64,000 nt of DNA. Origin: an uncultured Chromatiales bacterium (lineage in GTDB: Bacteria; Pseudomonadota; Gammaproteobacteria; SZUA-140). Shown piece by piece: positions 5,779 through 36,614 of this stretch. The notes beneath the pieces were generated by a model. That model searched no databases, was not told the origin of the DNA, and saw only the letters and a list, made by a program, of their open reading frames with translations. The stretch lies in assembly GCA_964581365.1 (NCBI GenBank), contig CAZOOF010000002.1, positions 9,826 to 73,825 of the forward strand. Direction: 5' to 3'. How positions within the stretch are numbered: the first letter of the stretch is position 1; every line of letters starts with the position of its first letter. Made by a program: the position numbers and the translations under genes.

Positions 5779-6825
5779 TTGGTAATGAAGTACAGCCAGC
5801 TCGGAACCACCGGCGTCCAGGTAAGCCGTATCTGCCTGGGCACGATGACCTTCGGCGAACAGAATACCGAAGCGGAGGCCCATGCCCAGTTCGATGCCGC
5901 GTTCGATGCAGGCATCAACTTCATCGACACGGCGGAAATGTATCCGGTTCCGCCGAAGGCGGAGACCTACGGTGACACCGAGCGCTATATCGGCAGCTGG
6001 CTGCGCCGCAGCGGACGCCGGGATCGCGTGATCCTCGCCACCAAGGTGATGGGGCCTTCCGAAGATCTGCGTTACGTGCGTGACGGATCGACCCGGCTCG
6101 ACCGCCGCAACATCGAAGCCGCGATCGATGCCAGCCTGGAGCGCCTTGGCACCGACTACATCGACCTCTATCAGCTTCACTGGCCGGACCGCCGCAGCAA
6201 CTTCTTCGGCAAGCTGGGTTACGTGCACGATCCGCAGGACGACCCGATCCCGCTGGAGGAAACGCTGGCTGCGCTGGGACGCCTGGTGGAAGCGGGCAAG
6301 GTGCGTTTCATCGGCGTTTCCAATGAAACACCCTGGGGCGTAATGCGCTACCTGCAACTCGCCGCCGAGCGCGGTCTACCGCGCATCGTCAGCATCCAGA
6401 ACCCGTACAATCTGCTCAATCGCAGCTTCGAAGTCGGCCTGGCCGAGATCGCGCACCGCGAATCGGTCGGCCTGCTGGCGTATTCCCCGCTCGGCTTCGG
6501 CGTGCTCAGCGGCAAGTACCTCGATGGCCAGCGTCCCGAGGGCGCGCGCCTGAGCCGCTTCCAGCGTTTCCAACGCTATACCAAGGAAGCCGCGCAGGAT
6601 TCGATCCGCGCCTACGTGGAAGCCGCGCGCAAGCATGGCCTCGATCCCGCGCAAATGGCGCTGGCCTACGTGAATACTCGCTCATTCCTTACCAGCACTA
6701 TCATCGGCGCAACTGATCTGCAGCAGCTCGCCGCCAACATCGCCAGCATCGATGTGGAATTGCCGGAGGAAGTGCTGGCTGAGATCGAAGCCGTTCATCT
6801 GCGCCACCCCAATCCGTGCCCCTGA
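5779..6825 (+). CDS. tas: NADP(H)-dependent aldo/keto reductase (Tas-like).
   Basis: 348 aa. ICLGTMTFG…IDTAEMYP…LYQLHWPD…IGVSNE… are AKR-family motifs. Length and N-terminus resemble E. coli Tas. Confidence 0.8.
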   Translation: MVMKYSQLGTTGVQVSRICLGTMTFGEQNTEAEAHAQFDAAFDAGINFIDTAEMYPVPPKAETYGDTERYIGSWLRRSGRRDRVILATKVMGPSEDLRYVRDGSTRLDRRNIEAAIDASLERLGTDYIDLYQLHWPDRRSNFFGKLGYVHDPQDDPIPLEETLAALGRLVEAGKVRFIGVSNETPWGVMRYLQLAAERGLPRIVSIQNPYNLLNRSFEVGLAEIAHRESVGLLAYSPLGFGVLSGKYLDGQRPEGARLSRFQRFQRYTKEAAQDSIRAYVEAARKHGLDPAQMALAYVNTRSFLTSTIIGATDLQQLAANIASIDVELPEEVLAEIEAVHLRHPNPCP

Positions 6826-9731
6826 ACACAGTCATCGCCCGCCGTCGCTGGCTGGCATGCGGGCTGGCGGCGGCGATCACCGGCGCGACCCAGGCCGCCA
6901 CCCTGCCTGAGGGGCGGGGCGGCACCGTCCAACTGCCGGTCACGACGGACCTTGTCGATCCTTGGCTGCGACCGGCGAGTCCGCGCCTGCTGTTTTCGCA
7001 CGAGCTCGAAGCAGCGGGACACGATCTGGCCCAGGCAGACAGCGCGCTTCTGATCGCAACAGAAGACAGCGTGCTGATACTGGATAGCAGCACTGTCCCG
7101 CCCCGAGTCATAGATCGCCTGACTCTCCCGGAATCCGTGCTCGAGATCGCGGCGGAAGGCAACACCGCCTGGCTGCTGACCCGGTCTCGCCTGTACACCC
7201 TGGATATCCGCGATCCCACCCGCGCGCTGTTGCGCAGCAGCCTGGCGCTGAACGCACCGGCGCGCAGCTTCACGGTCGCCAATGGCCGCGGCTACCTGCT
7301 TTCCCCCCGCAGCCTGCATGTACTCGAACTGACACCGTCCGGGCCTGCCCGGTTTATTCTCGAGCACGCGTTCGATTTCGAGCCCGGCGCCATCGCAAGG
7401 GATGGCCGGGCAACCTATGTCGCCGCCGGCGAGCGCGGTCTGCTGGTCATCGATGACAGTGGCCAGGTGGAAGGCTTCTCCGGCACCGGCCCGGTGCTCG
7501 ACGTCGCTATCGGTGATGACGGCCGCATCTATCTGGCGCAGGGTGAGCATGGGCTGACCGTGCTTGATCGCGGCGATCAGGATGAGCTGCGCTGGCGGGG
7601 CAGCCTGCGCGGCACGGGCGCGGTGGACGCGATCAGCCTCACCGGCTCCCGTGCGGTGATCCGCGATGGGGATGCACTCTATCTGCTCGAGGCGGAGAAT
7701 CCGGCGGCAACCGAACGCAGCGCTCTGCTGTGGCGTGCCGACGATTGTTGCGCTGCCTGGATGGCGCGGGAGAATCGTATTCTGACTGTCGCCGGCGATC
7801 GCTTCATCGGTATCGATCCACGCCGGGTGCCTCGGACCGGTAACGAAGGACTGGCGTTCGGTCAGGGCGTTAACTTCGGCGGCCAGCGCCGCATTTTTAT
7901 CGAAGGCGATACGGCCTACGTCGCCGACTGGTTCGCCGGCATGCACATATACGATCTGAGCGAACCGCGGCGCCCCGCATTGCTCGCCAGTGTACGCAGT
8001 GATGGTTCGCCCAAAGGCGTGGTCGTTCGCGACGGTATCGCTTTCGTCGCCGATGATGATCATGGTCTGCTGGTGGTGGATGTCGTCGACCCGAGCAAAC
8101 CGAGGGCGCTCGGCCGGCTGCCGCTGCCGGGTCTCGCCTACACTCCGGTACTGGACGGCGACCTGCTCTACCTGGCAGCCCATCACGGCGGCGTGATGAT
8201 CATCGACGTCAGTAATCCACGTCTGCCATCCCTGCTGACTCATCTCGACACACCCGGCAAGGCCTGGTCGTTGCGTGTGCGCGACGGCATTGCCTGGGTC
8301 GCGGACGATGACGCCGGCCTCGCGATCATCGACGTGAGCAATCCGCGCGCACCACAGGAGATCACCCGCTATCGTCCCGGCGGGCGCGTGGAAGAGGTCC
8401 TGCTCGATGGCGACGTCGCTTATCTCGCGCTCTATGACGATGGCGTGCATGTGCTGGATATCGCGGATCCTGCCTCGCCTCGACTCCTGACGCGAATACC
8501 GACTCCCGGCAACGCGCGCGGGCTGGCGCTGCGCGATCGGCTGCTGCATGTGGCCGACTGGATGGCGGGGATCCAGGTATTCGATGTCTCGGATCCGGCG
8601 CGGCCGCGTCATCTCGGTTCGCGTGACACCGACGGCGCGGCCTGGGGACTGGCCTTGCGCGAAGACACGGTGGTGGTCGCCGACTGGTGGGGCGGCTTAC
8701 TGCTGCTCGAAACCGGAACCTCGGCCCAGACCCTCGCCGTCTATCCGCGGCGCGAACGCATCCGGTCGATAGCGATCCGCGGCAGTTTCGCCTTCGTTTC
8801 TCAGGGCGATGCTGGCCTGCAGGTGTTCGATATCCGCAATCCGCTCAATCCGACCTGGGTGACCGGCATCGACCTGGCGGACGCGGATGCAGTCGCGCTC
8901 GAACAGCATCGAGCCTGGGTGCTGCACTCAGGAGGCAGACGGGTCGCTGCCGTCGATATCAGTGAACCTTTCCAGGCGCGCGTTGAGAAGCACCTCGAAG
9001 CGCCGCTGCAGGCAAGCATGCTGCGCGCCCTGGACGGCGCCATTCTGCTTGCGGGAGACGGAGACGTTGCGCTGATCGATACGCATTCGGGCGCGGTGAG
9101 GCAGGTATCGCCCCGGATTACCGACGCCACATCGGCGGCCGGTATCGCGCTGATCGCCGATACCGATGGGAACATCTGCGAACTGCATGACGATGTGAGT
9201 GAAGGTCGGGTGCTGGCATCGATCGACAGCCCCATCGTCCGCCTGCTCGCAAATGATGAGCGGGTGATCGCCCAGACCACCGATGAGAAGCTGCATGTAT
9301 TCGCCTGGCACACGGGCGGAGCACTGCGCAAATTGGCAGAAATCCCGGTGCCAGGCGGAATCAACGCGCTTGCGATCGACGGCACCCGCATCCACCTCGC
9401 CCGCGGGCGCAGTGTGCAGACAATCGAATCAGGCGTCGATCGCTGGCGCCTCGCCGCAGCCTACGAAACGATGGCGCCGGTCACTTATCTCGCTCCCGGA
9501 GAGGAAGCCATCTATCTCGCCGGCACCCAGGTGCTGCGGGCGCTGTCACGTCTGCCGGAAGCCCGGGCCGAAAGCAGGGGCCCGGACGGGCTGCTGCTCC
9601 ATGTCCCTGCCGGCCTGCCTCCCGGCGCCTATGATCTGCTACCCGGCCAGCCTCTGGGCGCCGCCGCGCTGATCGAGGACGCGATCCACATCGAGCCGCT
9701 CCGCTTCGGCCGCGGCCCGCGGAATCAGTAG
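6816..9731 (+). CDS. Large secreted LVIVD-repeat (beta-propeller) protein, 971 aa, with a possible Tat signal peptide (ARRRWLACGLAAAITGATQAA).
   Basis: At least eight repeats of the form hydrophobic-x-[IV]-[IVF]-D-[VI]-S-[ND]-P-x-x-P (LVIVD-type). The start overlaps the tas stop. Confidence 0.75.
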   Translation: MPLNTVIARRRWLACGLAAAITGATQAATLPEGRGGTVQLPVTTDLVDPWLRPASPRLLFSHELEAAGHDLAQADSALLIATEDSVLILDSSTVPPRVIDRLTLPESVLEIAAEGNTAWLLTRSRLYTLDIRDPTRALLRSSLALNAPARSFTVANGRGYLLSPRSLHVLELTPSGPARFILEHAFDFEPGAIARDGRATYVAAGERGLLVIDDSGQVEGFSGTGPVLDVAIGDDGRIYLAQGEHGLTVLDRGDQDELRWRGSLRGTGAVDAISLTGSRAVIRDGDALYLLEAENPAATERSALLWRADDCCAAWMARENRILTVAGDRFIGIDPRRVPRTGNEGLAFGQGVNFGGQRRIFIEGDTAYVADWFAGMHIYDLSEPRRPALLASVRSDGSPKGVVVRDGIAFVADDDHGLLVVDVVDPSKPRALGRLPLPGLAYTPVLDGDLLYLAAHHGGVMIIDVSNPRLPSLLTHLDTPGKAWSLRVRDGIAWVADDDAGLAIIDVSNPRAPQEITRYRPGGRVEEVLLDGDVAYLALYDDGVHVLDIADPASPRLLTRIPTPGNARGLALRDRLLHVADWMAGIQVFDVSDPARPRHLGSRDTDGAAWGLALREDTVVVADWWGGLLLLETGTSAQTLAVYPRRERIRSIAIRGSFAFVSQGDAGLQVFDIRNPLNPTWVTGIDLADADAVALEQHRAWVLHSGGRRVAAVDISEPFQARVEKHLEAPLQASMLRALDGAILLAGDGDVALIDTHSGAVRQVSPRITDATSAAGIALIADTDGNICELHDDVSEGRVLASIDSPIVRLLANDERVIAQTTDEKLHVFAWHTGGALRKLAEIPVPGGINALAIDGTRIHLARGRSVQTIESGVDRWRLAAAYETMAPVTYLAPGEEAIYLAGTQVLRALSRLPEARAESRGPDGLLLHVPAGLPPGAYDLLPGQPLGAAALIEDAIHIEPLRFGRGPRNQ

Positions 9732-19418: not shown

Positions 19419-19459
19419 GCCGGTTGGCCACGGCGATGGGCCCGGATACAATAGCCGCG

Positions 19460-19804
19460 ATGAACGCCAAGCGCCTCTACCGTATCGCGTTTCTCAATGG
19501 CGGCAAGCTTTACGAGATCTACGCCCGCTCTGTTTCACAGAGTGAGCTGTACGGATTCGTCGCGATCGAGGAGATCGTTTTCGGCGAAAAATCGGCCCTG
19601 GTGGTCGATCCCGCCGAGGAACGGCTGAAGAGCGAATTCGCCGGAGTCCGTCGCAGCTACGTCCCGCTGCATGCCGTGGTCCGCATCGACGAGGTCGACA
19701 AGCAGGGGACGGCGAAAATCAGCGCCACCGGCGAGGGCAAGATCACGCCGTTCCCAGGCACCTTCTATGGCGCGGGCAAGCCGCCGGAATCGGGTGACGC
19801 CTGA
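19460..19804 (+). CDS. DUF1820-family small protein.
   Basis: [22 protein letters not shown]…VVRIDEV is a conserved hypothetical widespread in gammaproteobacteria. The family name is recalled, not searched. Confidence 0.55.
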
Positions 19805-20784
19805 TCGCCGTCGCGCGCGCAGCGGAAACCCAGATCGAGAAACCGCGCCGCAGGATGCAGCGGATAGCGATAGGCCGCGCGGTAAAAGTGGCTGATGACG
19901 TAGTGACCGAGCCCGCCCCAGCCGCCGCCACGGGCGACCTTGAGCCTTTCACCCTCAGGTAGTTCGAACTCAGAGCCTTCGTACGGTGCATACCAGTCGT
20001 CCACCCACTCCATGACGTTTCCGGCCATATCGTAGGCGCCGTAATATGATTTTCCGGCTTCGATTGAACCGACCGGACGCAGGCCCGCTTCCTGACCGGC
20101 GATCACCCGCTCCCGGCTCCAGGTATCTCCCCAGGGAAACTCACGCCCGTCGGGCCCCCGGGCCGCTTTCTCCCACTCCTTTTCGGTCGGCAACCGCTTT
20201 CCGGCCCACTCGCAATACAGGCGCGCGTCCTGCCAACCGACTCCGGCGACGGGCAGCGAATCCTGTTCCCGGCGCTTGCGCTCGATGAGGTCAAGCACGG
20301 CGCCCCGATCCAGGTCTGCGAGTTCGCCTTCAATGCCGAACATGTCGAGCGCCAGCCCCCGCAATTCCTCCACACCGAGATCGGCGGCTTCGAGAATCTC
20401 ACGCGTCAGCAGATAACCGCTGCTTTGCCAGCCGTCCGGCACCCAATGATCGGTCTCGATCACGAAACGGCTGTATTCGAGATTCGTCACCTCATGACGA
20501 TCGATGAAGAAGGTATCGAGATGGAGACGGCGCTGAGGCGTCTCGTCGAGGTATGGCGCCTTGTTGAGCCCGAATTCCGCGAGATCAGGGCCGCCCGCGG
20601 CGCTCGCCGGGGTTCCAAACAGAAACCCGCCGGCCGGCACCGGAACCATGTCGCCGGCGCTTGCCCCGGTCGCCGCCATGAGGAGCCCCGCCGCAACGAT
20701 CAGGGCTCGAGCACCGGTATGATCGGCGGTGTTCGGGGTCACCACTTCCTCCTCTAGCGCCATCGGGCGGGCCGCGCGAAGCAC
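19765..20784 (-). CDS. Formylglycine-generating-enzyme (FGE/SUMF1) family protein, exported or membrane-anchored.
   Basis: FGE-sulfatase domain motifs (…[11 protein letters not shown]…[18 protein letters not shown]…RGGGW…). N-terminal hydrophobic segment. Confidence 0.8.
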
Positions 20785-20933
20785 AGTCCGGGAATCAGAT
20801 GGATCAGATTACCTGTCACGCCTGCATGGTGAAAGAAGAATCAGACACCCGGAGCCATCCGGCAGCGCAGAGATCACGGTCCAAGTCAGGCGGATGAGCA
20901 AAACACTCCTGCGTGGCGCCTGCACTGGTCGTC

Positions 20934-21971
20934 TCAGTCCTGCGCGTCGCTGGCGCAACGGAAACCGAAGGTATCGTTTCGGACCCGTGCACTGAAGAAG
21001 CCGCGGTTGTAGACCGGGGCAGAAATACCACATTTGTAGAAGGAGCAATCCCACCAGGAACCGCCCTTGAGCACCCGATAGATTTCGCCGTAGTTCTCGG
21101 ACGGGCGGTCATTTCCCGGATACGGCTTATACCAAGAAGCGGTCCACTCCCAGACGTTACCGGTCACATCGTGCAGCCCATAGGGACTGGCGCCCTGCGG
21201 AAACGCGCCGACCGGCGTCGTATCTCCCCTGCGCTCGAGCGCCGACCAGCGCACAGGCGTATTGGCGCGGACGATATCGAAGTACTCACCCCAGGGGAAC
21301 GGCCGCCCATCGGTGCCGCGCGCAGCCTTCTCCCATTCGGTTTCGGTGGGCAGGCGCTTGCCTGCCCATGCACAGTAATCTCTGGCATCGAACCAGGAGA
21401 CCTGCACCACCGGATGATCCGCCTTCCCCGGCGGATGGCCGCGCCCCTCGAAATGTGCCGGCGCTCGCCGGTGGGTGGCCTCGATGAACTGCTGGTACTG
21501 AAGATTGGTCACCGGATAGCGATCGATGAGGTAATCGCCCAGGTAGACGACATGCTGCGGACCTTCGTCGGAAAAGCGCTCGTCGGTGCCCATGATGAAT
21601 TCACCGGCGGGAATGCGGATCATCGGGCCCGGATCGGCGCCGAAGCGGGAGCCTTCGTAATATTGAGGTCCTTGCAGACCCATGGCGTCATCAGCTCCAC
21701 CCCCGCCGGCGGCGACACCCTCCGCAACCGGCAGCGAAGACGCAGGGATGCCATCGGTGTGGCAAGCCAGGCAACCGCGGCTCTTCAGTTCTGGCGCAAA
21801 CACGCTGGCGGTATGACACTGCTCGCAGCGGGAAGCCTCTCCGCCGTGGTGTTCGATATCGTGGCCACGGGAGCCGGCCGGCGTCGTATCGGCGGCGAGC
21901 ACCGCCACCCCCGGCCCAACCGCCAGAGCGCAAGCAATGTACAGATGAAGGGTCAGCAGAGTTCGAGTCAT
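20934..21971 (-). CDS. FGE/SUMF1-family protein fused to an N-terminal di-heme c-type cytochrome region (CEQCH, CLACH), secreted.
   Basis: Signal peptide MTRTLLTLHLYIACALA, two CxxCH motifs, then an FGE domain (…YPVTNLQYQQF…[18 protein letters not shown]…GGSW…). Paralogous to the neighbouring gene. Confidence 0.8.
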   Translation of the reverse strand: MTRTLLTLHLYIACALAVGPGVAVLAADTTPAGSRGHDIEHHGGEASRCEQCHTASVFAPELKSRGCLACHTDGIPASSLPVAEGVAAGGGGADDAMGLQGPQYYEGSRFGADPGPMIRIPAGEFIMGTDERFSDEGPQHVVYLGDYLIDRYPVTNLQYQQFIEATHRRAPAHFEGRGHPPGKADHPVVQVSWFDARDYCAWAGKRLPTETEWEKAARGTDGRPFPWGEYFDIVRANTPVRWSALERRGDTTPVGAFPQGASPYGLHDVTGNVWEWTASWYKPYPGNDRPSENYGEIYRVLKGGSWWDCSFYKCGISAPVYNRGFFSARVRNDTFGFRCASDAQD

Positions 21972-22046
21972 CGCCAGCCAGATGCACGAGGCCTCGCGAA
22001 CGGCCCGGCAAGCCGCAATGATATCATGCGCTCCGCCGGGCATCGG

Positions 22047-29830: not shown

Positions 29831-32800
29831 TCAGGAGGCGCGTAGCTGACGTTCGAATTCGTCCGGCGTCAGCGCCGGACTGCGCAGGAAGCCCTGATAA
29901 CGGTCGCAGCCGAGGGCTGCGAGGAAGGCAAGCTGACGCTCGTTCTCGACCCCTTCGGCGAGAATCCTGAGGTTCAGCGCCTGACCCATAGCGACGATGG
30001 CGCGCACCAGTTCGCAGTCACTGGGATCATCTGGAATTCCTTCGATGAAGCGCCGGTCGATTTTCAGCACATCCAGCGGGAAACGCTTGAGATGGGCAAG
30101 GGAAGAGTAACCGGTGCCGAAATCGTCGATCGCCAGCCGGATACCGAGATCACGCAAACGGCCCAGTATGATTTCGGCCTCCTCGGCATGGGTCATGATC
30201 GCGGTTTCGGTGAGCTCGAACTCCAGATGCCGGGGTGGGAAACCGGTATCCTTCAGGAGGCGATCCACCTGCTCATGAACATCCGAGTGCAGTAACTGGC
30301 GCGGAGACAGATTGACTGCCAGCGTCAGCGGCGGCAGGCCCTCATCCAGCCAGCGCCTTCCTTGCCGGCATACTTCACGCAAGGCCCAGCTGCCAATCTG
30401 CGCGATCATCCCCGTTTCTTCGGCGAGCGCGATCCATTCCGCGGTCGGCATCAGCCCGCGCTCGGGATCGTACCAGCGCAGCAGCGCTTCGGCGCCTATT
30501 ATCCGCCCGCTGGCAACCTCCACCTGAGGCTGATAGCAGACCTGCAATTGGCCCGCCCCGAGGGCGCGGTGCAACTGTGACTGCATCTCCACCCGCATTC
30601 GGGACGCTTCGGTCATTTCGTCGGAGTAGAACCGGACCTGCCCCTGTCCTTCGCCCTTGGCCCGATAAAGCGCGGCGTCAGCCTGTTGCAGCAGCAGCTC
30701 GGCGGTACGGCCATGCTCCGGGCACAGACTGACGCCGACACTGACATTGATCCGCACCTCCGAACCGTTGGACAGGTGCAGGGGTTCCGCAAGCTGGCGA
30801 ATGATCTTGGAGGCGATGCCGCTCACCTCACTGACCCCGCTGATGTCCTCCAGCAGGATGCAGAACTCGTCGCCGCTGAATCGCGCGACGGTATCGGCTG
30901 AACGCACGCAACGGCGCAGGCGCTCCGCCGACAGCCGCAGCAACTCATCGCCGGCCAGATGACCGAAGCTGTCGTTGATTTCCCCAAAGCCGTCCAGATC
31001 GAGCATGAGCACTGCCAGTCCGCCACCCCGCCTGATACGGACTTCTATCGAATGTTCCAGCCGGGTACGCATCAGCAGGCGATTGGGAAGGCCGGTGAGG
31101 GCATCGTGATGCGCCTGATGAGCAAGCTTGGCTTCAGATGCCTTGAGCCGCGAGATATCGGTGAACACCCCGACGTATCCGCTGATGCGTCCGCCCTGAT
31201 CGCGCAGGACGCTGATGCTGAGCAGGGAAGGAAAGATCTCTCCGCTCTTGCGCCGATCCCATACCTCGCTGCGCCAGTGACCGGTCTCGCGCAACCCACT
31301 CCACAGCTCGCGGTAGAAATCGAGGCCATGCCGACCGGAGCGGAACATCTCCGGGGTATTCCCCAGGATCTCCGCTTCCTCGTAACCCATCATGCGGCAG
31401 AGGGCTGGATTGACCATGGTGATCCGACGATCGGCATCAGTGACCAGAATACCGTCACCACTCCTTTCGAAGACCATCGCCGCCTGACGCAATCGTTCTT
31501 CGTTGCGCCTCCGCTCGGTGATATCCTGTGCCGTTCCGATGCCTTTCAACAGGGCACCGTGCTCATCGAAAGTCAGGTTCGCGCGCTCGCGTATCCATTT
31601 CTCCTCGCCGTTTACGACGATCCGGTGCTCCAGATCGTACTCCTCACCCCGGAGTGCCCGTTTCCAGGCCTCGTCCACCATGCGCTGGTCGTCGACGTGC
31701 ACGCAGCCGAGAAAGCGCTCATAGGTAAGCGTCTCACCAACCGGGATGCCGAAGATGCGATAGCATTCGGGTGACCAGATCAGAACGTTCCGGCGGATAT
31801 CCAGCGACCAGCTTCCGATGCGGGCGACTCTCTGCGCGCGATTGAGATCTGCCTCGCGCTCCCGTAGCGTTTCCTCATAGGCCCGGCGTTCGCTCACATC
31901 CTGGATGCTCGCAATCAGATACTCGGGGACGCCGGCCTCGTCGACCAGACACTGCACATGAATAGACGCGTAAACAGGGGTTCCGTCGCGATGCAGCAGC
32001 CGCAGCTCTGCCTGTGAGCCCGCGACATCACCCGCCAGGACACGGCGCAGGCGAAGCGGATCACCCCGGCGATCAGCAGGGTGCAGAAGGGTTCTCCAGT
32101 CGCATTGCAGCAGCTCCTTCTCCGAGCGGCCGAGCATCTGGCACAGACAGGCATTGACGTTGACCGGCCTTCCCGTACGCGTGGAGAACATCGCGATGCC
32201 GGTGAAAGGCATATCGTGAAACGCCTGCACCAGACGATTCTTTTCCGCCTGCGCTGCCATGAGCGCGTCCTGGGTGCGCCGGCGATAGCGGCGCTGCACG
32301 TAGAAGACCGCGCTGACCAGCGGAAACATCGCTGCCAGGGCCGCCAGCGTTACCCACATGACGAAGCGGCGCAGCGGCGCCATGATTGCGCCCTGGTCGA
32401 TCAGCGTCATCACCAGCCAGTCGGTCGTCCCCACCGGATGATATGCTGCAAGGATCGCAGCGCCATTGCCATTGCGACCTGAAACCAGCCCCGGTCTGCC
32501 GGGATGCGCCTCCGCAAGCAGTCCTGGCGCAGAAAAACGCCTCGATTCGCCCAGTATCCTGATTCCGCCTTCACCCTGACGATAGACGATCGCGGTGCGA
32601 TCGGAGCCCGCCGGGAAAGCCTGCTCCAGCAACTGGCGAAGGCGATGCGCGTCACTCCGCATCACCAGCGTGGCCACCGGTACGCCGGGACGCGCACTGT
32701 CACTCAACGGCACTATCCAGTCGAGGTACGGCACGTTCGCTTCGCTGTAATGCAGGAACGGTCCAACACCGGCACCGCCACGCACCAGATTCATCAGCTG

Positions 32801-33427
32801 GGGTGGAACGCCTACGTAAGCTCCGCGCAGCAGGACTGCATTCCCGTCCGGATTGAACAGCAGCATCGCCCGATAGCGGTCGCCTCGCAGCATCGAATCG
32901 AGACGATCGACCACCGGCTCGAATCTGGCGCGGGTACCGTCATAGAAGAAGTCCGCGATCTGGCGCGCGAAGCCAGAACTTCCCATCAGCATCTCAGCGT
33001 CAGCGCTCCGTTCGTCGAGCCAGTTCTCCATTTCGCTGGCTATGCGCGCGGCATCGGCCGCCAGCGTACGCTGCGCCTCCCACTCGAGCTGCTCGGAGTG
33101 CTTGCGTGCCATACCGATATCGGTCACCGGCACGATCATGGCAAGACCGATCAGAATTGCGGTGAGGTGCCTGGGAGAGGCCCAGATCGGACCATCGCTG
33201 GAGGAGTGGCGCGTCCAGCGATGAAGGAGGTAGAGCACGCCGGCAGTTACGGAAACGAAGATGAGGGCCTTCGCCACTCCGATGCGCGGCAGCGCGCTTT
33301 GGTTGCCTACGACGACGGTGGTAAGCCAATCGGCACTGGCTGCCCAGAGGGCGACGAAACAGGCATACAACACCACGACGGCTGCGGGGCCGTAGACGCG
33401 GACTTGTGTGCCTGAAGAGGAGTGCAT
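29831..33427 (-). CDS. Multidomain c-di-GMP sensor protein: N-terminal multi-TM region with a periplasmic sensing domain, three PAS/PAC domains, GGDEF (…FSGDEF…) and EAL (…EGVEN…, …KIDRRFI…) domains. About 1198 aa.
   Basis: Domain motifs read from the translation. AGGAGA RBS before the ATG at 33427. Divergent from the decaheme gene with 113 bp between starts. Confidence 0.85.
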   Translation of the reverse strand: MHSSSGTQVRVYGPAAVVVLYACFVALWAASADWLTTVVVGNQSALPRIGVAKALIFVSVTAGVLYLLHRWTRHSSSDGPIWASPRHLTAILIGLAMIVPVTDIGMARKHSEQLEWEAQRTLAADAARIASEMENWLDERSADAEMLMGSSGFARQIADFFYDGTRARFEPVVDRLDSMLRGDRYRAMLLFNPDGNAVLLRGAYVGVPPQLMNLVRGGAGVGPFLHYSEANVPYLDWIVPLSDSARPGVPVATLVMRSDAHRLRQLLEQAFPAGSDRTAIVYRQGEGGIRILGESRRFSAPGLLAEAHPGRPGLVSGRNGNGAAILAAYHPVGTTDWLVMTLIDQGAIMAPLRRFVMWVTLAALAAMFPLVSAVFYVQRRYRRRTQDALMAAQAEKNRLVQAFHDMPFTGIAMFSTRTGRPVNVNACLCQMLGRSEKELLQCDWRTLLHPADRRGDPLRLRRVLAGDVAGSQAELRLLHRDGTPVYASIHVQCLVDEAGVPEYLIASIQDVSERRAYEETLREREADLNRAQRVARIGSWSLDIRRNVLIWSPECYRIFGIPVGETLTYERFLGCVHVDDQRMVDEAWKRALRGEEYDLEHRIVVNGEEKWIRERANLTFDEHGALLKGIGTAQDITERRRNEERLRQAAMVFERSGDGILVTDADRRITMVNPALCRMMGYEEAEILGNTPEMFRSGRHGLDFYRELWSGLRETGHWRSEVWDRRKSGEIFPSLLSISVLRDQGGRISGYVGVFTDISRLKASEAKLAHQAHHDALTGLPNRLLMRTRLEHSIEVRIRRGGGLAVLMLDLDGFGEINDSFGHLAGDELLRLSAERLRRCVRSADTVARFSGDEFCILLEDISGVSEVSGIASKIIRQLAEPLHLSNGSEVRINVSVGVSLCPEHGRTAELLLQQADAALYRAKGEGQGQVRFYSDEMTEASRMRVEMQSQLHRALGAGQLQVCYQPQVEVASGRIIGAEALLRWYDPERGLMPTAEWIALAEETGMIAQIGSWALREVCRQGRRWLDEGLPPLTLAVNLSPRQLLHSDVHEQVDRLLKDTGFPPRHLEFELTETAIMTHAEEAEIILGRLRDLGIRLAIDDFGTGYSSLAHLKRFPLDVLKIDRRFIEGIPDDPSDCELVRAIVAMGQALNLRILAEGVENERQLAFLAALGCDRYQGFLRSPALTPDEFERQLRAS

Positions 33428-33540
33428 GGGTCTCCTATCGGCACTTACGAGCGAGGATATGAATGACGTGATGCGAGTAAACCAGCGTAACCCTTTGCTT
33501 GCATCGGTCGATATCTTGGGCAACCCACCGGATTCATGAC

Positions 33541-34404
33541 ATGCCTTCGCTTATTCTTATAGTTATTCTGCTGGCGCTGTCTTCTCTTGCTTCAGCCGGA
33601 GATCGCGCTCCGGAGTACGTCGGAGACCGCGAATGCAGCTATTGCCACAAGCTGGAAGCGCGTCAGCACGCGAACAGCGATCACGGCCGCCTGGTCAGCG
33701 GACGCGTCGGCGAAGCTCGCAGTTGTGAAGCTTGCCACGGCCCGGGCAGCCGCCATATCACCGTAGTGGGTGACCCCTTGTACCGCGGACCGCTGCATAT
33801 CCGCACCGGCGCGGACCTGAAACGCGATCCGGAAGCCACATGCCTGGCCTGCCACGAGAACGGCTCGCGACTGCACTGGCATGTCAGCGCCCATGCGGCA
33901 TCCGATCTCGGCTGCACGAGCTGCCACAGCATACATGATTCCGGCAAGACCACCGACTGCGGCGCCTGCCACCGTCGCGAGAGTACCCGATTGCAGCGCT
34001 CCGCACACATGCCGGTGCGGGAAGGATCCATGCAGTGTGCCGACTGCCACGACCCTCACGGCGGCGACGGACCAGCGGCGCTGCGTGCGGGATCGGTCAA
34101 CGAGATCTGTCATCGCTGTCATGCTGACAAGCGTGGCCCCATGCTGTTTGAACATCTTCCGGTACGGGAGGACTGCACGCTGTGCCATGACCCCCATGGA
34201 TCCAGCCATCGCAGCATGCTGGTCCGGAAACCGCCGACGCTGTGTCAGCAGTGCCATATGCTCGGCGGACATCCGAGCTGGCTTTACGATAGCGCCGAGC
34301 TCGCCAACGCCGATATCAGCCAGTACGGCGCGCGGAACTGTCTGAACTGTCATTCACGAATCCACGGCTCCAATCATCCCTCGGGATCACGGTTTCAGCG
34401 CTGA
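33541..34404 (+). CDS. mtoA: Decaheme c-type cytochrome of the MtrA/DmsE/MtoA/PioA family (periplasmic component of a porin-cytochrome conduit).
   Basis: Signal peptide MPSLILIVILLALSSLASA, then exactly ten CxxCH motifs in about 260 residues (CSYCH, CEACH, CLACH, CTSCH, CGACH, CADCH, CHRCH, CTLCH, CQQCH, CLNCH). The stop overlaps the start of the downstream barrel gene (TGATG). Confidence 0.85.
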   Translation: MPSLILIVILLALSSLASAGDRAPEYVGDRECSYCHKLEARQHANSDHGRLVSGRVGEARSCEACHGPGSRHITVVGDPLYRGPLHIRTGADLKRDPEATCLACHENGSRLHWHVSAHAASDLGCTSCHSIHDSGKTTDCGACHRRESTRLQRSAHMPVREGSMQCADCHDPHGGDGPAALRAGSVNEICHRCHADKRGPMLFEHLPVREDCTLCHDPHGSSHRSMLVRKPPTLCQQCHMLGGHPSWLYDSAELANADISQYGARNCLNCHSRIHGSNHPSGSRFQR

Positions 34405-36614
34405 TGCAGCCCGGGTTTCCACCACTCATCCTTCATCCCTTCCGGCGCCGGCGGCTTCGCCTGGCGATCGGCGCCATGCTTCTGTGCGCTGACGCGGCTG
34501 CGGCCGTACAGCTGAGCGGCCTGATCGAAATCGGCGGACTGTATCTCACCGACGAACGCTCCGGCGCGCAGGGCTCATACGGTCCGGCGATTCATCAGGG
34601 AATACATCCGCTCGGCAGCCTCGATCTGAGTGTCGATGGCGAGGGCAGTCGGACCCGCATCCAGGGATCCATGACCAGCCCGGACTTTGGAGACTTCGGC
34701 GTCACGCTGCTCGCGAAGGATGGCGATAGCGTCCGCCTCGACTACCAGCGAATGGCTCGCCGGGGAGACGACGGACTTTCATTATTGCAGAGCGGCGCAG
34801 ACATTCTGACCCTGCCCCCAGGCTTCGTGCCCGCGAACACGACTCAGGATTTCGATCTGAGTGTCCTGCAACCGGTGGAGCTCGGTACCAACCGGGAGCG
34901 CTATGGGATTGCGGCGCGTCTGTTTGCGGGAAACGACTGGAGAACGGATGTCTCGGTACGCGAGGAACGGCGCCGCGGGGTGCAGGAAATCGGTGCAATG
35001 GTTGGCGTCGATCCGCTCGAGGCGCGCTCCATCATTCTTCCCGCACCCGTGGATCAGCAGTTGCGTGAGCTGGATGCCGCCCTGTCCTGGGAGCGGGACG
35101 GCCGTCAGTTGCGCATTGCGTATCGCGGATCTCTGTTCACCAACCAGCACCAGGCGCATCGCTGGGAGGTACCCTTCCTGGCTGCAGGCGACGATCCGCT
35201 TCCCGATACCGGTCGGCTCGGCACATCGCCGGACAATCATCATCACAGCATTTCCATCGATGCGGGCACCCGTCTCGGCAAGACGTCCCGTCTTAGTGCG
35301 AGCGCCAGCCTGTCGCGCATGCAGCAGGATGAGGACCTCCTCCCATACTCGACCGGCGCATCGCTCACGGCGCTGCCGCGCAACTCGGCCGAGGCCCGTG
35401 TCGATGTGCTTCGCCTGGCGCTGAACGCAAGTGCCCGCCCCCTGGATCGGCTGACACTGAGCGCCCGCCACCGCTACTACCGCAGCGACGACCGTATACC
35501 GCGGACCCGCTTCGAGCCCGTGCTTGCCGATACCATAGCGGGTCGCGCCACCATCAGCCGGCCCTACGACCACTTTCAGGCCAAAACACTTGTGCGGGCA
35601 GTGTATCGGGCAGCGACCGGATCGCGGATCCTGACGGAATGGACCCATGACATCGTCGGCCGCGATCTCCCTGGCAATGGGGGACACACCCGTGAAAACG
35701 GTCTGAAACTTGGTCTGCAACAGACGATCACGAGCCGGGCTCGTGCCCGCCTGTCCTTGCTGCATGCCGATCGCAACCGGCACGGACACGACGCCGTAAT
35801 CATCGACCCCACTGCTGCGGCCTCCTGTCCTGAAATAGTACTGGTGGATCCGGATCCCGATGGCGGAGCGCCGCGGGAGATCGATCGTTGCATCGGACAG
35901 CATCCGGATATGAGGCGGTTCATGCTGGGCGACCGCATCCGCCAGCGGCTCCAGACCGCAATCGACTGGTGGCCAACGGACGATGTGGATTTCGAACTGG
36001 GCTGGAGCATCAGCCGGGATCGGTACCGCGATCAAGCGGTATTCGACGATACTGTCTTCGGTCTGAGGGACAGCCGGGAAAGGATGCTGTACACCAACCT
36101 CAATTGGTCAGCACATGAATCATGGTCGATCAGCATTGCTTATTCCCGCGAGTATCTCGATGCGGCGCAGACCGGGCGGGACATGGCGCATGACCAGCCG
36201 TCAGCGCCGATCGACTCCAGCACCAACTGGCGGGCCCGCTCACATGACCGCGCCGATACCATCAGCGCGGGCCTTCGTCTCGACCTCCCCGACGGACGCA
36301 CCCGCCTGGCGCTGGATCTGGCTCACATTCGCGAACGCAATCGAATCCGGCTCGAAAGCCGCCTGCCTGCAGCCCAGCTTCCCGATGATGGCGCCAGGCG
36401 GCAGTACGCAGAGCTTCATGGAGAGCACGAGCCCGATGACCGGATCCTGCTGAAGGCGGGAGTGCGCTGGGAAGCGGTCATGGCGACCGACCGCAGCGAC
36501 AGTGGCATCGAAGTCGGAGAGATGCCCGGATTGAACGGAGTGCTGGCCTTGCGCAGTGGTGACACCGACTACGATGTCCTGCTGATCTGGAGTTCGATCA
36601 CATACCTTTGGTAG
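34404..36614 (+). CDS. mtoB: MtrB/MtoB/PioB-family outer-membrane beta-barrel porin partner of the decaheme cytochrome.
   Basis: 736 aa. N-terminal signal peptide, amphipathic beta-strand periodicity throughout, and a C-terminal …SITYLW aromatic terminus. Translationally coupled to mtoA. Size matches MtrB/PioB. Confidence 0.75.
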   Translation: MQPGFPPLILHPFRRRRLRLAIGAMLLCADAAAAVQLSGLIEIGGLYLTDERSGAQGSYGPAIHQGIHPLGSLDLSVDGEGSRTRIQGSMTSPDFGDFGVTLLAKDGDSVRLDYQRMARRGDDGLSLLQSGADILTLPPGFVPANTTQDFDLSVLQPVELGTNRERYGIAARLFAGNDWRTDVSVREERRRGVQEIGAMVGVDPLEARSIILPAPVDQQLRELDAALSWERDGRQLRIAYRGSLFTNQHQAHRWEVPFLAAGDDPLPDTGRLGTSPDNHHHSISIDAGTRLGKTSRLSASASLSRMQQDEDLLPYSTGASLTALPRNSAEARVDVLRLALNASARPLDRLTLSARHRYYRSDDRIPRTRFEPVLADTIAGRATISRPYDHFQAKTLVRAVYRAATGSRILTEWTHDIVGRDLPGNGGHTRENGLKLGLQQTITSRARARLSLLHADRNRHGHDAVIIDPTAAASCPEIVLVDPDPDGGAPREIDRCIGQHPDMRRFMLGDRIRQRLQTAIDWWPTDDVDFELGWSISRDRYRDQAVFDDTVFGLRDSRERMLYTNLNWSAHESWSISIAYSREYLDAAQTGRDMAHDQPSAPIDSSTNWRARSHDRADTISAGLRLDLPDGRTRLALDLAHIRERNRIRLESRLPAAQLPDDGARRQYAELHGEHEPDDRILLKAGVRWEAVMATDRSDSGIEVGEMPGLNGVLALRSGDTDYDVLLIWSSITYLW

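Follow-up and report, generated by a model that had tools for sequence, protein, structure and literature searches.

A 64-kb stretch of DNA from an uncultured Chromatiales bacterium, referred to below as the window, encodes side by side two exported proteins with the fold of the formylglycine-generating enzyme (FGE). The product of the upstream gene, which we call A, carries a dihaem cytochrome c module ahead of its FGE-fold domain; the product of the downstream gene, B, has neither a haem motif nor a cysteine pair. The architecture of A is conserved across phyla, A is commonly paired with a Cys-less FGE-like paralogue, and c-type cytochromes have been recruited recurrently at related loci. 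We tentatively propose, as a possibility that stands beside several rivals, that A is an FGE-like periplasmic redox enzyme with a thiolate or copper site that receives two electrons from its own haems, that B is a non-catalytic partner and that the target is something other than a sulfatase.

An earlier note on this DNA had described two exported, co-oriented FGE-fold genes, the upstream one with CEQCH and CLACH motifs before its FGE domain. Both points are borne out: the two genes lie on the minus strand, both products begin with a signal peptide and both match the Pfam FGE-sulfatase family (E 4.5e-59 for A, E 5.3e-49 for B), and the two haem motifs can be read directly from the sequence of A. 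The features of the pair are as follows.

20934..21971, minus strand: gene A, exported dihaem cytochrome c plus FGE-fold domain, 345 amino acids (aa); from the open reading frame (ORF), Pfam and full-length homologue conservation.
21891..21971, minus strand: signal peptide of A, residues 1-27, MTR...VLAA before DT; from the translation and from homologues with equivalent hydrophobic N-termini.
21759..21851, minus strand: dihaem module of A, residues 41-71, HH-x6-CEQCH-x13-CLACH; from the sequence.
21813..21827, minus strand: haem motif CEQCH of A; from the sequence.
21759..21773, minus strand: haem motif CLACH of A; from the sequence.
21624..21758, minus strand: Gly/Ala/Pro-rich low-complexity linker of A, residues 72-116; gap-rich and variable in the alignment, predicted local distance difference test (pLDDT) <50 in the full-length model.
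20952..21623, minus strand: FGE-sulfatase fold domain of A, residues 117-340; from Pfam, AlphaFold2 and Foldseek.
21030..21047, minus strand: Cys-x4-Cys of A, C309 SFYK C314, inside GGSWWDCSFYKCGISAP; codons read.
19765..20763, minus strand: gene B, exported FGE-fold protein with no haem motif and no Cys pair, 332 aa as called.
19900..19929, minus strand: loop of B in place of the FGE active-site loop; from hhalign against real FGEs and a 141-sequence MAFFT alignment.

Gene callers start A at an ATG at 22043, which gives 369 aa. We take the ATG at 21971 as the start because homologues begin there, where the signal sequence MTRTLLTLHLYIACALAVGPGVAVLAA begins; the signal peptide was read from the translation and the homologue N-termini, not from a predictor program. 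The longest ORF of B starts at 20784, and its true start is probably the GTG at 20742, which would give 325 aa. This start is favoured because GGAGG lies 5 nucleotides (nt) upstream and because 325 aa is the length of a homologue (P0122). Cleavage of the B signal peptide is predicted before GD. The gap between the two genes (20764..20933) measures ~170 nt here and 25-190 nt at other loci, and a promoter scan of it found no promoter-like site. The sole product of a terminator scan was a weak terminator-like hairpin (20965..20982) within the 3' end of A. At its own 3' end, gene B overlaps a convergent DUF1820 gene (19436..19804, plus strand) by 40 nt (19765..19804), with no terminator-like structure between the two. 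The earlier note had called A and B tandem paralogues. They are adjacent and belong to one superfamily, and that part of the description stands; their relatedness was overstated, with tblastn cross-hits giving ~33-35% identity, a level at which the sequences mark them as distant superfamily members and not recent tandem duplicates.

We assessed conservation in the 120 best database proteins of A and in the best 80 loci, taking one genome per species. Independent metagenomes yielded 16 contigs that carry the gene A ORF in identical form. Two CxxCH motifs are present in 115 of the 120 closest homologues, and the five homologues without both motifs look like N-terminal fragments. Two haem motifs share an ORF with an FGE domain at 40 of the 80 loci, which span at least five phylum-level lineages. 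The proteobacterial hosts are Gammaproteobacteria/Chromatiales metagenome-assembled genomes (MAGs), Candidatus Tenderia, Gallionellaceae, Candidatus Nitrotoga and deltaproteobacterial/Thermodesulfobacteriota MAGs; the others are Nitrospinota, Nitrospirota and Candidatus Manganitrophus. The homologue sequences indicate that the dihaem-FGE fusion of A is real and old and that the combination is widespread. NCBIfam has no specific model for either A or B, and databases label both generically, A as 'formylglycine-generating enzyme family protein'. A literature search that took in iron-oxidiser genomics papers turned up no report of FGE fused to cytochrome c.

The FGE-fold domain of A also contains a Cys-x4-Cys whose distribution follows that of the haem module. 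The pair is present in 39 of the 40 dihaem loci, the exception (L025) being a frameshifted contig, and in none of the 40 haem-less loci. It is absent from every haem-less relative examined, including 133 of the 150 best 50%-identity cluster representatives (from a search of 1.84 billion representatives, used solely for the haem/Cys co-occurrence count). These closest representatives (P0245-P0394) are mostly haem-less giants of up to 6340 aa with 2-18 tandem FGE-sulfatase domains. All 120 closest homologues of A have GGSW[WF]DC-x4-C. In an alignment of 28 sequences of the A family, rich in Gammaproteobacteria, the Cys-x4-Cys is invariant and the surrounding GGSWWDCSFYKCGISAP-x-YNR is near invariant, and the core GGS-x2-D-C-x4-C-G-[IL]-S is kept in other phyla, down to ~40% identity.

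The Cys pair of A falls in the same loop as the copper-ligand cysteines of FGE and has the same spacing, and the exact correspondence varies with the method used to align them. Counted from the GGS anchor, the first cysteine stands at +4 in A versus +3 in FGE, and the second is 25 residues from the GFRC cysteine versus 24; the active-site loop is two residues longer in A than in FGE. With either human FGE or 141 sequences that include actinobacterial FGEs, MAFFT sets the A pair one column off the equivalents of human C336/C341. Alignment by phmmer against the human C336S mutant matches the pair with C341/C346. Against 20 real FGEs, hhalign puts C314 of A on Cys1 and Tyr321 on Cys2, and matches YNRSFF..R..N of A to CNRYRVAARSSN of FGE. 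Elsewhere in the domain, the equivalents of Ser333, Trp299 and Asn297 of human FGE are conserved in A as S305, W274 and N272, and residues of these types are also common among non-catalytic relatives.

For the structure of A, AlphaFold2 was run on the domain alone with the diverse 141-sequence alignment and on the full-length protein with 28 sequences (pLDDT 60). The domain model has a pLDDT of 93.9 and a predicted template modelling score (pTM) of 0.92, and its only weak stretch is the ten residues holding the Cys pair (pLDDT 69). Foldseek matches include CalU17, ToxD, SUMF2, EgtB and FGEs at query-normalized TM-scores (TMq) of 0.75-0.83, with FGE structures at 0.76-0.82, and the best sequence match in the PDB is SUMF2 (E 1e-35). 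Judged by the model, the FGE fold of A is certain and shows no special closeness to catalytic FGEs.

Copper-dependent FGE (SUMF1; human, Streptomyces coelicolor, Thermomonospora curvata) is nonetheless the natural standard for comparison. Like A, it has the PF03781 fold (TMq ~0.8), a Cys-x4-Cys in the loop after the GGS strand, the Ser/Trp/Asn residues and a conserved structural disulfide pair (YC..WAGKRLP and GFRC). The loop of A reads GGSWWDCSFYKCGISAPxYNR and lacks the motif GGS[YF][LM]CHxSYC that is present in 117 of 120 real FGEs. A also lacks a ~50-residue subdomain that FGE has between its first beta-sheet region and the DHPV motif, and that B keeps. The dihaem module occurs in 0 of 120 canonical FGEs, and A, unlike them, is exported to the periplasm and has no associated sulfatase. 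In a rough neighbour-joining tree, the 40 dihaem domains form one clade, nested among Cys-less FGE-like proteins and far from the canonical, actinobacterial FGEs, with a haem-less zetaproteobacterial group as its sister. By motif, phylogeny and associated substrate, A does not appear to be a canonical FGE. The FGE fold given in the earlier note is borne out, and A is not an orthologue of true FGEs, given the nesting among Cys-less proteins and the absent motif and subdomain. From its position in the tree, the Cys pair of A may have been gained independently of the FGE pair.

Other FGE-fold families offer further points of reference, among them PvdO, which acts in periplasmic redox maturation, PorK/GldK, PorK having a structural role, and the catalytic domain of EgtB/OvoA. 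A scores far under the NCBIfam cut-offs for PvdO (62/500), GldK (71/350), EgtB (126/360) and SenA (114/420). Its match to EgtB/OvoA/SenA is limited to their C-terminal FGE-like part, and A has no N-terminal DinB domain with iron ligands. Nor does A have a lipoprotein signal, and a fused cytochrome occurs in none of PvdO, PorK/GldK and EgtB/OvoA.

The haem module of A occupies ~35 residues and consists of two motifs that follow the signal peptide, so that A is an exported polypeptide with CxxCH attachment motifs. The motif spacing is conserved, with starts 16-22 residues apart among homologues, and an HH pair lies 6-7 residues upstream in ~80% of the 115 homologues, these being Gammaproteobacteria-type sequences. 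The close spacing resembles that of class III cytochromes c3/c7, in which comparison the upstream His pair could supply both distal ligands. The likeness stays below the Pfam gathering thresholds: positions 1-37 of Cytochrom_c3_2 (its first two-haem segment) score 17.7-24.4 bits against a cut-off of 25, and Cytochrome_C7 scores 13-19 bits against 24.8. Compared with c3/c7, A has only two haems in ~35 residues, and its module exists solely as an appended domain. In our reading the module is a minimal, flexibly tethered relay of class III-like type, its two haems presumably attached at both motifs and probably bis-His ligated. The HH pair is missing in Nitrospirota and Nitrospinota members. In the Nitrospinota loci L026, L030 and L037, where the first haem motif takes the form Cx3CH (CKSVCH, CQTSCH, CDAACH), the upstream pair is missing too, and the distal ligands must differ.

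Proteins of the B family are tightly conserved around an invariant motif, RGGGWGGxGHY..HFYR..YR. The core GGG[WF]GGxGH is found in 114 of 120 B homologues, and the Cys pair and the haem motif in 0 of 120 each. Both hhalign and the 141-sequence MAFFT alignment lay the B loop on the FGE loop LCHDSYCNRYRVAAR without difficulty, with Gly in place of Cys1 and Ser in place of Cys2. Since both cysteines are replaced and the long subdomain is kept, B is a pseudo-FGE, formally like human SUMF2, the inactive FGE paralogue in which both catalytic cysteines are likewise replaced; the B loop is also of FGE length. On these sequence features B is best seen as a pseudo-enzyme partner of A, and its genomic pairing with a Cys-bearing protein recalls the SUMF1/SUMF2 pair, the pairing here being one of gene adjacency. 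B differs from SUMF2 in being bacterial and periplasmic, is not its orthologue and has its own invariant motif, and one B-type protein (at L024) carries a cytochrome c domain.

A Cys-less FGE-like paralogue adjoins A in 29 of the 40 dihaem loci. The B-type gene follows A directly in L001-L018, L020, L021 and L025, in several deltaproteobacterial and Nitrospirota loci between one and three Cys-less FGE-like genes of other types come after A, and A is solitary in most Nitrospinota and Nitrospira loci. Clustering of neighbour genes, first at 22 loci and later at 40, revealed no conservation beyond the FGE paralogues. The cassette also occurs in multiplied forms, as a tandem A-B-A-B duplication in a Gammaproteobacteria MAG (L016, 274..4385) and as A-B-B' in a beta proteobacterium MAG (L009) and a Gallionella MAG (L014).

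Additional cytochromes were found at several of these loci. In a deltaproteobacterial/Thermodesulfobacteriota subclade, A is immediately preceded at four loci by a small gene for a class I monohaem cytochrome c.

L048, 6055..6507: class I cytochrome c gene upstream of A.
L022, 1937..2272: class I cytochrome c gene upstream of A.
L028, 3833..4243: class I cytochrome c gene upstream of A.
L034, 228..563: class I cytochrome c gene upstream of A.

At L048 the cytochrome gene overlaps the start of A by 4 nt; just upstream of it lie genes for a Roadblock/LC7 protein, a small GTPase and pyruvate:ferredoxin oxidoreductase. In a Gammaproteobacteria MAG (L024, 8719..9972), it is the Cys-less FGE-like paralogue downstream of A that bears a cytochrome c, as an N-terminal class I monohaem domain that scores 37 bits for Pfam Cytochrome_CBB3 (cut-off 27). 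That c-type cytochromes were recruited independently at these loci is, from the sequences, the best argument that the whole system moves electrons.

The observations can be assembled into a model in which A and B would form a self-contained periplasmic redox module. A would be the catalytic subunit, its FGE-fold domain having a remodelled active-site loop with the invariant Cys-x4-Cys and being tethered through the flexible linker to the minimal cytochrome c3/c7-like dihaem module. The two thiolates would hold a metal, most likely Cu(I), or would serve as a redox-active dithiol; a thiol-containing substrate would bind at this site and be oxidised with O2. The haems, drawing on the periplasmic cytochrome pool, would deliver two electrons per turnover and so re-set the site. 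B would be a non-catalytic partner of A, acting as substrate adaptor or stabiliser in the way that SUMF2 does for SUMF1. No target is encoded nearby, and a classical sulfatase is probably not what A acts on. The earlier note had seen in the haems an electron donor for a redox-driven modification system, and this idea fits what is known of FGE, whose catalytic cycle is closed by a two-electron reduction with a physiological reductant that is unidentified (PMC12123546). Two one-electron haems would match this requirement and suit the known cycle, which we count in favour of the model. It also counts as evidence that, across the several phyla compared, neither the haem module nor the Cys pair appears to have been lost. 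A more specific form of the proposal, in which A is a self-sufficient copper/thiolate oxygenase that works with its pseudo-enzyme partner to modify oxidatively (to formylglycine or a related product) a non-sulfatase periplasmic protein of chemolithoautotrophs, is more doubtful.

Several points weigh against the proposed model. With three alignment methods giving three registers, a residue-level equation of the Cys pair of A with the FGE copper ligands is not supported. The earlier note would have been refuted by a loss of the catalytic cysteines from both copies, and the outcome is divided: A keeps a Cys pair, whose match to the FGE ligands differs from method to method, and B has lost both cysteines. 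The longer motif CHxSYCxRYRxAAR is not kept in A, and the equivalent of Arg349 of human FGE is uncertain. The pair could also be a mere structural disulfide in the oxidising periplasm. The dihaem clade is monophyletic, from which it follows that the haem module and the Cys pair had a single origin; finding them together counts as one event and does not testify repeatedly to coupling. Some hosts are deltaproteobacterial/Thermodesulfobacteriota MAGs, with pyruvate:ferredoxin oxidoreductase encoded next door; such hosts may be anaerobic and hence a poor fit to O2 chemistry. Finally, no candidate substrate of A was found.

A different way to connect the same parts, which we regard as rather unlikely, reverses the electron flow. 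In this case A would be a periplasmic dehydrogenase whose Cys pair oxidises a thiol, sulfide, persulfide or small molecule. Also rather unlikely is the accompanying step, in which the haems would pass the electrons to the cytochrome c pool or respiratory chain, in the manner of cytochrome-linked sulfur dehydrogenases or PvdO. Such a role would suit the hosts, mostly chemolithoautotroph lineages (Gallionellaceae, Nitrotoga, Nitrospinota, Nitrospirota, Manganitrophus, Tenderia), and would be workable in anaerobes too. Class I cytochromes c, whose genes or domains are co-located with the cassette, typically serve periplasmic dehydrogenases as acceptors; the window also contains genes for an MtoA/PioA-like decahaem protein and an MtrB/PioB porin, and NCBIfam calls the FGE-fold protein PvdO a dehydrogenase. 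Set against this are the score of A for PvdO, 62 bits where 500 are needed, and the arrangement of the cassette, which is adjoined by energy-metabolism genes in none of the 40 loci. The haem type is a further difficulty: c3/c7-like bis-His haems are usually low-potential and would be poor acceptors for feeding a high-potential chain.

It is also unlikely, in our assessment, that neither A nor B is an enzyme and that they use their FGE folds for binding, as happens in PorK/GldK, SUMF2 and the sensor domains of conflict systems. The companion proposal is equally unlikely: the Cys pair would be a structural disulfide, and A would be a cytochrome that docks or relays within a periplasmic chain for electron transfer or sensing. 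The FGE-sulfatase superfamily is mostly non-catalytic, the nearest relatives of A have no Cys pair and B has no catalytic residues; the periplasm moreover favours disulfides, and confidence in the model is lowest at the Cys loop. What speaks against this reading is the conservation of the loop, since a 17-residue GGSWWDCSFYKCGISAP that is close to invariant, with a core kept across phyla, exceeds the usual need of a structural disulfide. In addition, the Cys pair and the haem module arose jointly, and both have been retained.

That A is a sulfatase-maturing FGE moved to the periplasm, converting Cys to formylglycine in the CxPxR motif of exported sulfatases or phosphonate hydrolases encoded elsewhere, is improbable. 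The fold, the Cys-x4-Cys in the right loop, the conserved Ser/Trp/Asn equivalents and the database annotation would all accord with such a function. A nevertheless lies outside the canonical FGE clade and lacks both the motif found in nearly all real FGEs and the ~50-residue subdomain, and Foldseek puts it no nearer FGE than SUMF2, CalU17, ToxD or EgtB. The earlier note had reported no sulfatase nearby, and a regular-expression search for the CxPxR-type signature over six frames agrees, with no match in the 64-kb window, this being the part of the genome that the search covered; nor was a sulfatase-like conserved neighbour found across the 40 A loci. As for the notion that the fusion is an artefact of frameshift, mis-assembly or chance CxxCH, the earlier note having raised that of a frame artefact, no supporting point was found and it is effectively ruled out by the single uninterrupted ORF, the 16 contigs and orthologues that keep the motifs in 115 of 120 homologues and at 40 loci.

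Among oxygenases, FGE is unusual in its mononuclear Cu(I) site, and it has found wide use in bioconjugation. If the proposed model is correct, an FGE-fold Cys-pair domain wired to a two-haem relay would show a natural answer to the electron-supply problem and could yield reductant-independent aldehyde-tag enzymes. In the more specific and more doubtful form of the proposal, the pair would also represent a new post-translational maturation system in the chemolithoautotroph periplasm. The clade is conserved, with no sulfatase partner, in phyla where iron-, nitrite- and manganese-oxidising lithoautotrophs abound, and this points to a modification or redox activity of their periplasm that has gone unrecognised. 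If the Cys pair is structural, what remains is a new domain architecture within a very large superfamily.

The genes that flank the A/B pair in the window encode endonuclease V, an ankyrin-repeat protein, a PfkB kinase, the DUF1820 protein, fructosamine kinase, a MetH activation domain, Mpl, UbiX and the CCA-adding enzyme. These are housekeeping genes, none of which hints at the function of A or B. No Rfam match was found within the window.

About 12 kb from the FGE pair lies a second cytochrome locus (33499..36614, plus strand), consisting of a gene for an MtoA/PioA-like periplasmic decahaem cytochrome (301 aa, ten CxxCH) and, directly after it, one for an MtrB/PioB-type outer-membrane porin (736 aa; Pfam MtrB_PioB, E 2e-82). 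Porin-cytochrome pairs of this kind are typical of electroactive bacteria and Fe(II) oxidisers. Directly upstream of the MtoA-like gene, and divergent from it, is a gene for a PAS-GGDEF-EAL signalling protein of 1230 aa (29831..33523, minus strand). The window also encodes a 971-aa LVIVD-repeat protein (6816..9731, plus strand).

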